64,000 bases of DNA from an uncultured Gemmatimonadales bacterium (lineage in GTDB: Bacteria; Gemmatimonadota; Gemmatimonadetes; Gemmatimonadales; Gemmatimonadaceae), in assembly GCA_963707505.1 (NCBI GenBank), contig CAVPQB010000004.1, positions 256,001-320,000 of the forward strand, given 5' to 3'. Both the position numbers and the translations under genes were made by a program. This document shows, piece by piece, positions 14,600-18,114 of this stretch (its first letter is position 1; every line of letters begins with the position of its first letter). The notes beneath the pieces are model-generated. The model ran no database searches and was not told where the DNA came from. It saw nothing but the letters and a program-made list of their open reading frames with translations.

Positions 14600-14748
14600 A
14601 GTTTCGAACGATCGTCCGATCGAGTTATCACGCACGATTTGCCGACCGTGCAGGTCCCGTCCGGCTTAACGTTCGCCTCGTTTTGACGTCGTATGTTTAG
14701 CCGCGCGATCGGGCATGCGCGGCATCAAATCAAGGAGAAGTGAAAGAC

Positions 14749-15261
14749 ATGAAGCTACAATTTCTGGCAGTAGCGGCTGCAGCTGGTCTGATGGCCGTTC
14801 CCGCACTGCACGCTCAGGCAACGACCCCGCCTCAGGCATCGATTACGGGCCACAATCCCCCGCAGCGCGGGATGATGATGCACCGCGGGATGATGCGGAA
14901 CCTGAATCTTACCGCAGACCAGCAGGCCAAGATGAAGGCGATCCACGAGAAGTACGCGCCCCAGATGAAGGCCGCGCGTGAGAAATCCAAGCCGGACTTC
15001 GACGCCATGAAGAAGGCTCGCGCAAGCCACGACACCGCGGCGATGAAGGCAGCTCGTGCCAGGCTCCAGGCCGACATGGCGCCGACCCAGAACGTCATGA
15101 AGCAGCAGATGGCGGAGATGCGTGCGATCCTGACACCTGAGCAACAGCAGAAGATGGACAGCGCGCGCGTGCACATGCAGGGGCGCATGGGCGGACGTGG
15201 ATTTCATTCGGGAATGGGCGCCAGACAGACGCAGCCGGTAAAGCCAGCCAGCACGTTGTAG
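14749..15261 (+). CDS. Spy/CpxP family periplasmic chaperone
   Basis: Signal peptide (LHA|Q), Met-rich, two LTxxQ motifs (LNLTADQ, ILTPEQ). AAGGAG RBS nearby. Confidence 0.88.
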   Translation: MKLQFLAVAAAAGLMAVPALHAQATTPPQASITGHNPPQRGMMMHRGMMRNLNLTADQQAKMKAIHEKYAPQMKAAREKSKPDFDAMKKARASHDTAAMKAARARLQADMAPTQNVMKQQMAEMRAILTPEQQQKMDSARVHMQGRMGGRGFHSGMGARQTQPVKPASTL

Positions 15262-15302
15262 TCGCCACCGGCCGGCTTTTTCAACCAAGCTCCTTTGCAC
15301 CC

Positions 15303-15342
15303 GACGCGGGCCGTCCTGATTGGATTGCCCGCGTCTTTTTTT
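15303..15342 (+). terminator. Intrinsic terminator after the Spy/CpxP gene
   Basis: 9-bp stem GACGCGGGC/GCCCGCGTC followed by T7. Confidence 0.7.
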
Positions 15343-15423
15343 CATCGGCCTGATTGCAGAACACCAACAGATATTCTCCCTCGCGCGGAACGCCCGCGCT
15401 CACAACCCAAAAAGGGAGATGTC

Positions 15424-15789
15424 ATGACTATCAGCCGGATACTGTTCGCCGCCATCGCATGTTGCGTCACCACCAGCTCGATGAGCGCGCAATCAAACCA
15501 TACCTATTCGCGCCCGAAGGCCGCCATGTGGACCGCGCTGCAGCTCACCGAACCGCAGAAGGCACAGGTGAAGGTCGTTCACGAGAAGTACGTGCCCGTA
15601 ATGAAGGCTGCGCGAAAGATCGGCGCTGACAGCGCAGCCACGATCAACGATCACGAGATGCGCGACGTGCGCGTATTGCTCACGTCGTCGCAGCAGCTGA
15701 CGTTCGATTCGTACATGACGGGCGGGAAGAGGTCGAAGCGGAGTGCGCAGGTGAAAGTGATGCCGGCGAAGATCGCGGTGCCGAGGTGA
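15424..15789 (+). CDS. Second, shorter Spy/CpxP-like protein
   Basis: GGGAG RBS, signal peptide, LQLTEPQ and LLTSSQ motifs. KVVHEKY matches KAIHEKY in the upstream paralog. Confidence 0.75.
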   Translation: MTISRILFAAIACCVTTSSMSAQSNHTYSRPKAAMWTALQLTEPQKAQVKVVHEKYVPVMKAARKIGADSAATINDHEMRDVRVLLTSSQQLTFDSYMTGGKRSKRSAQVKVMPAKIAVPR

Positions 15790-15831
15790 GGTCGCGACTG
15801 GATGATGAGAGTCGTCATCCCCGGAAAGCCC

Positions 15832-15864
15832 GTCATCCCCGCGAAAGCGGGGAACCACGGACGA
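15832..15864 (+). repeat. Left 33-bp inverted repeat (CGTC-type REP hairpin) of the GIY-YIG element
   Basis: GTCATCCCCGCGAAAGCGGGGAACCACGGACGA is the exact reverse complement of 16257..16289. A degenerate copy lies at 15813..15830. Confidence 0.95.
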
Positions 15865-15920
15865 GGCCATGAACTTAGATCCCATATTTGCAGGAGTGGT
15901 CACTCGATTGAGAGACTCTC

Positions 15921-16238
15921 ATGAGAACACCAACCGTGTACATCCTCGCCAGCAAACCCCGCGGAACTCTCTACATTGGCGTGACATCCAACCTGGTGCG
16001 GCGTATCTGGCAACATCGAGAAGGCGCTACCGATGGATTCACCACTCGGCATCGAATCAAGCGTCTGGTGTGGTACGAACAACATCAGACGATGCTCAGC
16101 GCAATCGCACGAGAGAAGCTTCTGAAGCGATGGTTGCGGCCATGGAAGTTCGAGCTGATTCAAACGATGAATCCGAGATGGCGCGATCTCTGGCCCGACA
16201 TAATCGGCCTGTCGAGACCGCACACTCCTGCAAACTAG
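15921..16238 (+). CDS. Short stand-alone GIY-YIG endonuclease
   Basis: VYILAS...TLYIGVTSNLVRRIWQH, AIAREKLLKRW and NPRWRDL. 105 aa. Confidence 0.93.
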   Translation: MRTPTVYILASKPRGTLYIGVTSNLVRRIWQHREGATDGFTTRHRIKRLVWYEQHQTMLSAIAREKLLKRWLRPWKFELIQTMNPRWRDLWPDIIGLSRPHTPAN

Positions 16239-16256
16239 GATTGGCGATTCGCATCG

Positions 16257-16289
16257 TCGTCCGTGGTTCCCCGCTTTCGCGGGGATGAC
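16257..16289 (-). repeat. Right 33-bp inverted repeat of the GIY-YIG element
   Basis: TCGTCCGTGGTTCCCCGCTTTCGCGGGGATGAC. Confidence 0.95.
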
Positions 16290-16432
16290 AACCGCCACCG
16301 GTTGCAAATTTTGTCGCCTAGCGTAAAACCGCGCAGCCGAACAATATTCGGCCCCAACAGAACGACGTCGTCGCGGCCGGCTGTGCTGAAGCCGCGACGA
16401 CTGATTCAACCATTCAACTCGCGGCCGACATC

Positions 16433-18082: not shown

Positions 18083-18114
18083 CTCGTCATTCCCGCTTGC
18101 GCGGGAATGACGAG
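18083..18114. repeat. Solo palindromic REP (CGTCATTCCCGC-N4-GCGGGAATGACG)
   Basis: CTCGTCATTCCCGCTTGCGCGGGAATGACGAG forms a 14-bp stem between convergent genes. A partial copy lies at about 18126..18141. Confidence 0.9.

Follow-up and report, generated by a model that had tools for sequence, protein, structure and literature searches.

In the window, the whole 64,000-nucleotide stretch of Gemmatimonadales DNA analysed here, a gene for a small GIY-YIG nuclease of the Ssn family lies between two inward-facing hairpin repeats, together forming an SRM-ssn-SRM cassette. The enzyme likely binds and cuts single-stranded DNA at the hairpin, and the cassette is likely to have been relocated or replaced now and then by cutting and recombination among repeat sites, not by true transposition; we assign this reading a probability of about 60%.

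On its left side, the cassette is preceded by decayed repeat remnants (positions 15800–15831, not assigned to a strand), made up of a remnant of a reverse tag and a truncated forward copy, with a hairpin at 15800–15820; these are the decayed copies that an earlier note on this DNA had placed beside the left arm. Base 15831 is the C of the left CGTC tag. The left perfect arm (15832–15864, plus strand) contains a CGTC-type REP or SRM hairpin followed by a tail, and matches the SRM pattern at 15831–15858. The right perfect arm (16257–16289, minus strand) contains an inward-facing SRM hairpin, matching the pattern at 16263–16290. Each arm is 33 nucleotides long, the two are separated by 392 nucleotides and they are 100% complementary, as had been claimed from the sequence. 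Folding predicts a 7-bp stem with a GAAA loop in each arm, in agreement with the hairpins described earlier. The stems of the arms pair over 7 bp, against 8 bp in the commonest genomic copies, because the pair at the foot is mismatched. The C after the palindrome is retained in both SRM matches. A (C)GTCAT tail had been proposed for each arm; the left tag is indeed CGTC, but the right one is TGTC. The 33-bp repeats of the earlier description are only the perfect part of longer arms, which remain alike, imperfectly, up to about 68 nucleotides (52 of 68 identical). The left extension (15865–15899, plus strand) and the right extension (16222–16256, minus strand, overlapping the last codons of the gene) include a perfect 12-nucleotide inner inverted repeat (15887–15898 and 16223–16234), the core of a subterminal motif that is common to gene-less elements and to the cassettes of genus-mates.

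The ssn gene itself (15921–16238, plus strand) encodes a 105-residue protein, by sequence a single-domain GIY-YIG nuclease. The other open reading frames over the interval overlap the GIY-YIG frame or the arms, and this frame is the only cargo with a family match (PF01541), in line with its being named the sole cargo before. Two LTXXQ/Spy-like genes precede the cassette, and an amidohydrolase gene follows it. The Spy-like genes, arranged in tandem at window positions 14740–15789, share an 82-nucleotide stretch that is 73% alike, probably reflecting an old duplication. A sigma-70 promoter scan gave no sites, and a terminator scan gave one weak terminator-like site, at chance level. Among sequencing runs, none of RNA was listed, and three low-depth DNA runs cover the locus piecewise, where two joints resting on 21 letters are left out.

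By every test run, the 105-residue protein appears to be an Ssn. GIY-YIG (PF01541) is its sole Pfam match, with an E-value of 1.9e-14, while an NCBIfam search returned no family for it. The comparison protein, used in place of the SsnA accession CAX49033.1, was P0136, a 94-residue protein named as from Neisseria meningitidis that carries Y6, Y17 and E64. Of 92 aligned residues 58 are identical (63%), and the E-value for the pair is 7e-42, which falls within the homology thresholds for Ssn (E below 1e-10 over more than 75% of the length, or, when applied strictly, an identity of 60% or more). With 105 residues and a single GIY-YIG domain, the protein is also below the family's size limit of 150 residues, and both SRM matches lie within the 500 bp allowed on either side of the gene. 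The catalytic residues Y7, Y18 and E65, the counterparts in the alignment of Y6, Y17 and E64 in Neisseria SsnA, are invariant in all 11 aligned proteins. In the protein tree, a quick search in which 73 of the 131 inner branches are open, the protein is located in a large group with Neisseria proteins, apart from the distant GIY-YIG genes. Among 8000 proteins scored, more than 6400 match at an E-value of 1e-20. The structure model has a pLDDT of 70.6; a fold search with it gave no match at an E-value of 0.001 or better, and a sequence search of solved structures returned no Ssn structure among its matches. UPF0213 proteins and Slx1 are the nearest solved structures by sequence and fold, but the matches are weak (E 8e-5 by profile and 3e-3 by fold, with about 27% identity) and the distant GIY-YIG genes examined have no hairpin flanks. 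In all six genus pairs, dN is 0.19–0.26 against a dS of 1.6–3.3 or saturated, and the ssn gene is under purifying selection in the genus. It is present as a single copy in this assembly, which is 83% complete.

The Ssn family (cd10448), of which SsnA is the N. meningitidis member, was defined by Chenal et al. in 2025 (PMC11893778). There, SRMs are reported on both sides of 42% of Ssn homologues, and four homologues bind and cut single-stranded DNA a few bases upstream of their hairpin. The N. meningitidis enzyme has no activity on double-stranded DNA or RNA and plays a role in transformation in vivo. The statement in the earlier note that no mechanism had been demonstrated is therefore outdated as regards recognition and cleavage. 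Since our protein belongs to the same family by sequence, it is likely to cut single-stranded DNA beside the hairpin of this genome. The cassette further resembles the published system in having a single-domain GIY-YIG protein of about 100 residues with the same catalytic residues and an SRM on both sides; the paper describes the arrangement as NTS-ssnA-NTS, likens it to IS200/IS605 and REP systems, and proposes it as a domesticated IS200/REP-like element, with the REP analogy in its Discussion. The differences lie in the host lineage (Gemmatimonadota here, with a named Gemmatimonadota record, L005, sharing the neighbourhood), in the stem variant, which has an unpaired base pair at its foot, and in the arms of about 68 nucleotides, the subterminal motif and the matching gene-less elements, of which no description was met in the accessible part of that paper. 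Its table contains four rows of cultured Gemmatimonadota, none showing SRM enrichment and three without a homologue; Gemmatimonadota names were sought in 12 of its 14 supplements, and the two remaining files could hold more examples. As far as the text of a 2026 preprint was available (10.64898/2026.09.22.753630), SsnA loci serve there only as a benchmark.

An ordinary repair-type GIY-YIG gene, similar to UPF0213, could have come to lie between two abundant repeats by chance, and the gathering of repeats in intergenic hot spots would fit this, as would the UPF0213 proteins being the nearest solved structures. The homologues argue against such a coincidence. A search of species genomes gave 99 related loci; among the best 80 of them, the published SRM pattern is present within 500 nucleotides on both sides in 24, against 1 of 544 control windows; this is the enrichment of homologue flanks that had been suggested as a check. 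On at least one side, the pattern is found within the same distance in 47 of these 80 loci, while a custom detector finds inward-facing hairpins within 250 nucleotides on both sides in 40 of the 80, a count without matched control. None of the five distant GIY-YIG genes in the tree (33–35% identity) has a repeat label. Together with the sequence-specific cleavage published for close homologues (PMC11893778), the proportion of 24 of 80 against 1 of 544 largely refutes the coincidence, which we consider very improbable. When repeat types are mapped onto the protein tree, 37 changes are needed against a shuffled mean of 79.3, and none of 200 shuffles is as low, with the labels being crude regex classes that miss some real hairpins. 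The covariation of repeat and phylogeny that had been put forward as a further check is present as clustering, but kin share repeat labels, so this clustering is no demonstration of co-evolution.

The same upstream peptide motif precedes the gene in 18 of the best 80 of these 99 loci, all distant. Many Lysobacteraceae (L008 and 17 other loci) have the cassette after the same gene, which in L008 places it between gspE and xpsF of a type II secretion operon. From the shared motif, with gspE and xpsF in the one locus checked, it follows that there the cassette is mostly inherited in place. In a sister family, homologues occur in 42 of 125 genomes, with up to six per genome and several containing internal stops; at its loci (L089–L093, L100, L105, L106 and L133–L151), the flanking hairpins have longer loops and other stem types.

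The hairpin family has 107 copies at 76 sites of the genome, counted within five mismatches of a 24-nucleotide core. The SRM pattern matches 86 times, against 31 to 36 times in five genomes simulated with a first-order Markov model. There are 23 close repeat pairs, all inward-facing, and the cassette is the only pair with no mismatches over 33 nucleotides, the others having 3 to 12. Also, an 11-nucleotide tail variant is confined to the two cassette arms. The pairing of the cassette arms exceeds chance. Collapsed, fully palindromic hairpins account for 32 of the 107 copies. The family has the features of CGTC-tagged REPs: a CGTC or TGTC tag, a stem of 8–9 bp (7 bp paired in the cassette arms), a loop of 4–5 nucleotides, a CCA tail and many dispersed copies. 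The CGTC repeats described by Di Nocera et al. in 2013 (PMC3733652) include Neisseria dRS3, are mostly arranged as pairs with the tags outside and are said to be without a dedicated transposase. Their CGTC-1 family is similar to ours in the CGTC or TGTC tag, the 4-nucleotide loop, the CCA tail, the pairs with outside tags and the position just after stop codons; it differs in that no dedicated enzyme was found for it, where a GIY-YIG gene is present here. In the parts of the two papers that were accessible, GIY-YIG does not occur in PMC3733652, nor do Di Nocera or CGTC REPs in PMC11893778, and dRS3 links them.

Other repeats surround this family. Inward-facing CGTC pairs of 101–102 bp (10 copies, such as C4:8767-8868 and C4:237800-237901 of this genome, G000) and of 112 bp (3 copies, with an inner palindrome) have conserved interiors, unlike those of the 182-bp elements described below, and one more single hairpin is located at window positions 18088–18111. 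A separate GTAG/GTGG-tagged REP family, with 24 matches in this genome, shares junctions with the CGTC family; in close relatives it holds CGTC-family junctions (L110–L112, upstream of the amidohydrolase gene), and one locus of G014 (L207) has two CGTC arms enclosing a GTGG-type hairpin. No RAYT was seen with repeats of this family on its flanks. Two Y1 transposase-like genes (PF01797) are present in the genome, L192 (G000:C6:582144-582467) and L193 (G000:C6:766487-766648), both bounded by short inverted repeats beginning GGGGTCAG, like the TIR-flanked genes of PMC3733652. A RAYT was considered as partner of the CGTC hairpin and rejected, with no such hairpin in the examined flanks of these two genes.

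Six gene-less elements of 182–201 bp in the genome share the long arms of the cassette. Past the hairpin, the forward ends of all six give better alignments with the cassette arms than any of 300 shuffles. The interiors of the 182-bp elements contain no coding remnant of ssn by blastn or tblastn, so that cassette and elements share their ends only. In this they resemble insertion sequence and MITE systems, in which gene-less elements have the ends of a gene-bearing one. A strict pattern for the subterminal motif has matches in 5 of 22 genus genomes, and the motif also flanks the cassettes of genus-mates at other sites.

REPtrons, composed of a RAYT HUH/Y1 transposase gene and GTAG REPs, are similar in having a small enzyme gene between inverted hairpins that are spread through the genome, in single copy and with patchy presence. 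The cassette gene, however, matches PF01541 only and lacks the HUH/Y1 tyrosine transposase feature, its flanking tags are CGTC and TGTC instead of GTAG, and no joining chemistry is known for it. It is REPtron-like in layout, not a REPtron member. Of the REPtron-like selfish unit that the earlier note had proposed, the hairpin flanks of the homologues and the cutting at the hairpin by the family have stood up; HUH and GTAG features are not found. In a full analogue of a REPtron, Ssn would autonomously excise and insert the cassette and the gene-less pairs, and thereby make the CGTC repeat family. The architecture, the predicted cut geometry and the long arms of the gene-less elements are consistent with this, as are the clustering of repeat type on the protein tree, the report of CGTC repeats without a dedicated transposase (PMC3733652) and the examined flanks of the two Y1 transposase-like genes, free of CGTC hairpins. 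It is nevertheless improbable, given the single copy, the lack of an exact insertion boundary or target duplication at the six gene-less sites and the sharing of labels among kin, and no joining activity is reported in the accessible part of PMC11893778.

The genus genomes compared are 67–99% complete and related to one another. A homologue is present in 7 of the 22, all of which hold 10 or more repeats; of the 15 in which none was found, 7 still hold 10 or more, including G015 (99% complete, 29 matches). Two genomes are flagged as unpublished: G007, the source of one cassette, and G017, the source of one of the junctions surveyed below; both also enter into the counts of 7 of 22 and 7 of 15. 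The junction after the second Spy-like gene was surveyed in 13 genus genomes and two further loci. In this genome, G005, G009, G007 (where the gene is apparently frameshifted) and L002, it is occupied by a cassette. G003 and G013 have a CGTC pair without the gene, G018 has the remnant of a CGTC repeat where its contig ends, G014, G015 and G016 have GTAG-type arrays, and G008, G017, G020 and G021 have no marked repeat. In G020 (L125), two small open reading frames resembling a toxin-antitoxin pair are found there in place of repeats. As the cassette is at the shared junction in G005, G009, G007 and L002, the site must be old.

Within the genus, cassettes are found at five junctions, of which the four other than this one are in G003 (two), G016 and G019; in the copy of G016, the codon that corresponds to E65 is a stop. 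Three of these four junctions carry a gene-less repeat in this genome, two of them collapsed hairpins and one a 201-bp element. Against a background of 76 repeat sites per about 3485 genes, the binomial p-value is 4e-5; a generous base rate raises it to 3e-3. The count is weakened since junctions gather repeats of any kind. The genus homologues are on one branch (SH-aLRT 97 in the quick tree, with one alphaproteobacterial row inside). When the L002 cassette is compared with ours at the same junction, 74% of silent sites differ, against 43–54% in three neighbour genes (Fisher p 9e-6), and its stem variant is different, which suggests replacement or independent entry. The GC3 of ssn is 0.63, against 0.75–0.83 in comparison genes, and may inflate its silent divergence. 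The L002 record is labelled Acidobacteriaceae, but its neighbour genes are 78–98% identical at the protein level to those of the window, so this label may be wrong. A gene fixed in synteny across relatives would, according to the earlier note, have told against a mobile unit; in the genus the gene occurs at five junctions, of which this one is common to several relatives.

Clean empty sites, which had been proposed as evidence to look for between the Spy-like and amidohydrolase genes, were not found at this junction in the three closest relatives, G014, G015 and G016, which have GTGG/GTAG-type repeat arrays instead. The six sites of gene-less elements gave no alignable empty site, exact boundary or target duplication in three close relatives, most holding other repeats, often of the GTAG type. 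In relatives whose flanks are about 90% identical, this junction and six others contain either other repeats or DNA that does not align. In keeping with the earlier observation of no obvious target-site duplication, none was found at the cassette or at the six gene-less sites.

Alternatively, Ssn could be a domesticated tool of the host that serves the cell, for example by trimming single-stranded DNA at repeats when it enters the cell or is replicated, with a stationary cassette and repeats spread by recombination, slippage or another enzyme. The published role in Neisseria transformation in vivo (PMC11893778) would agree with this, as would the single copy under purifying selection, the upstream gene common to 18 of 80 loci and the abundance of repeats where no homologue was found, as in G015. 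We regard it as unlikely, though worth serious consideration, in view of the five cassette junctions within one genus, the patchy presence in 7 of 22 genomes, the up to six matches per genome with internal stops elsewhere in the phylum and the excess silent divergence at the junction shared with L002.

Occasional relocation or replacement of the cassette is favoured by the five junctions, the gene-less repeats at three of the four others and the divergence of L002, and mobility is plausible on these comparisons. The single copy, the old shared site, the upstream motif shared by 18 of 80 loci and the lack of an exact empty site at seven junctions argue against frequent movement. The mobile unit of the earlier note would then be a cassette that may relocate now and then. 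A literature search, with subscription journals mostly outside its coverage, returned no paper in which Ssn was shown to drive mobility. Cleavage by GIY-YIG nucleases is hydrolytic, and these enzymes are not known to rejoin DNA in the manner of HUH enzymes. Joining would therefore be left to host repair, with the arms as homology. By analogy with its homologues, the enzyme would bind single-stranded DNA at the hairpin and cleave it a few bases 5' of the tag. Given the inward orientation of the arms, the two cuts would be expected immediately beyond the ends of the cassette, on opposite strands. A deletion between the stem halves that both arms have in direct orientation would produce a fully palindromic, collapsed hairpin, and an internal deletion of the cassette could give gene-less elements with long arms. 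If repair used the arms in this way, it would account for cassettes relocating into sites that already carry repeats and for two arms that match each other but not the other copies; collapsed hairpins would then be scars.

Because the pairing of gene and repeat and the cleavage of single-stranded DNA are already published, the locus itself is ordinary. The long arms, the matching gene-less elements and the turnover of sites in a single genus add modestly to the evidence on mobility. With an intact cassette, five sites, long-armed gene-less elements, and collapsed hairpins at junctions where relatives have a cassette, the genus offers a compact test case for Ssn mobility and repeat making. The protein is a further candidate Ssn-hairpin pair for single-stranded DNA tools, from a phylum sparsely covered in the part of the published table that was available. 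More tentatively, and at somewhat short of even odds, Ssn cassettes may form a separate class of mobile elements in which a GIY-YIG nuclease is the driving force. The enzyme would cut outside both inward-facing hairpins, and the cassette would move between repeat-bearing junctions, leave collapsed hairpins upon loss and keep a family of gene-less 182-bp elements with 68-nucleotide arms. If so, the CGTC REP superfamily would derive from Ssn, an origin that, like Ssn mobility, is presented as hypothesis only in the accessible part of the 2025 paper (PMC11893778).
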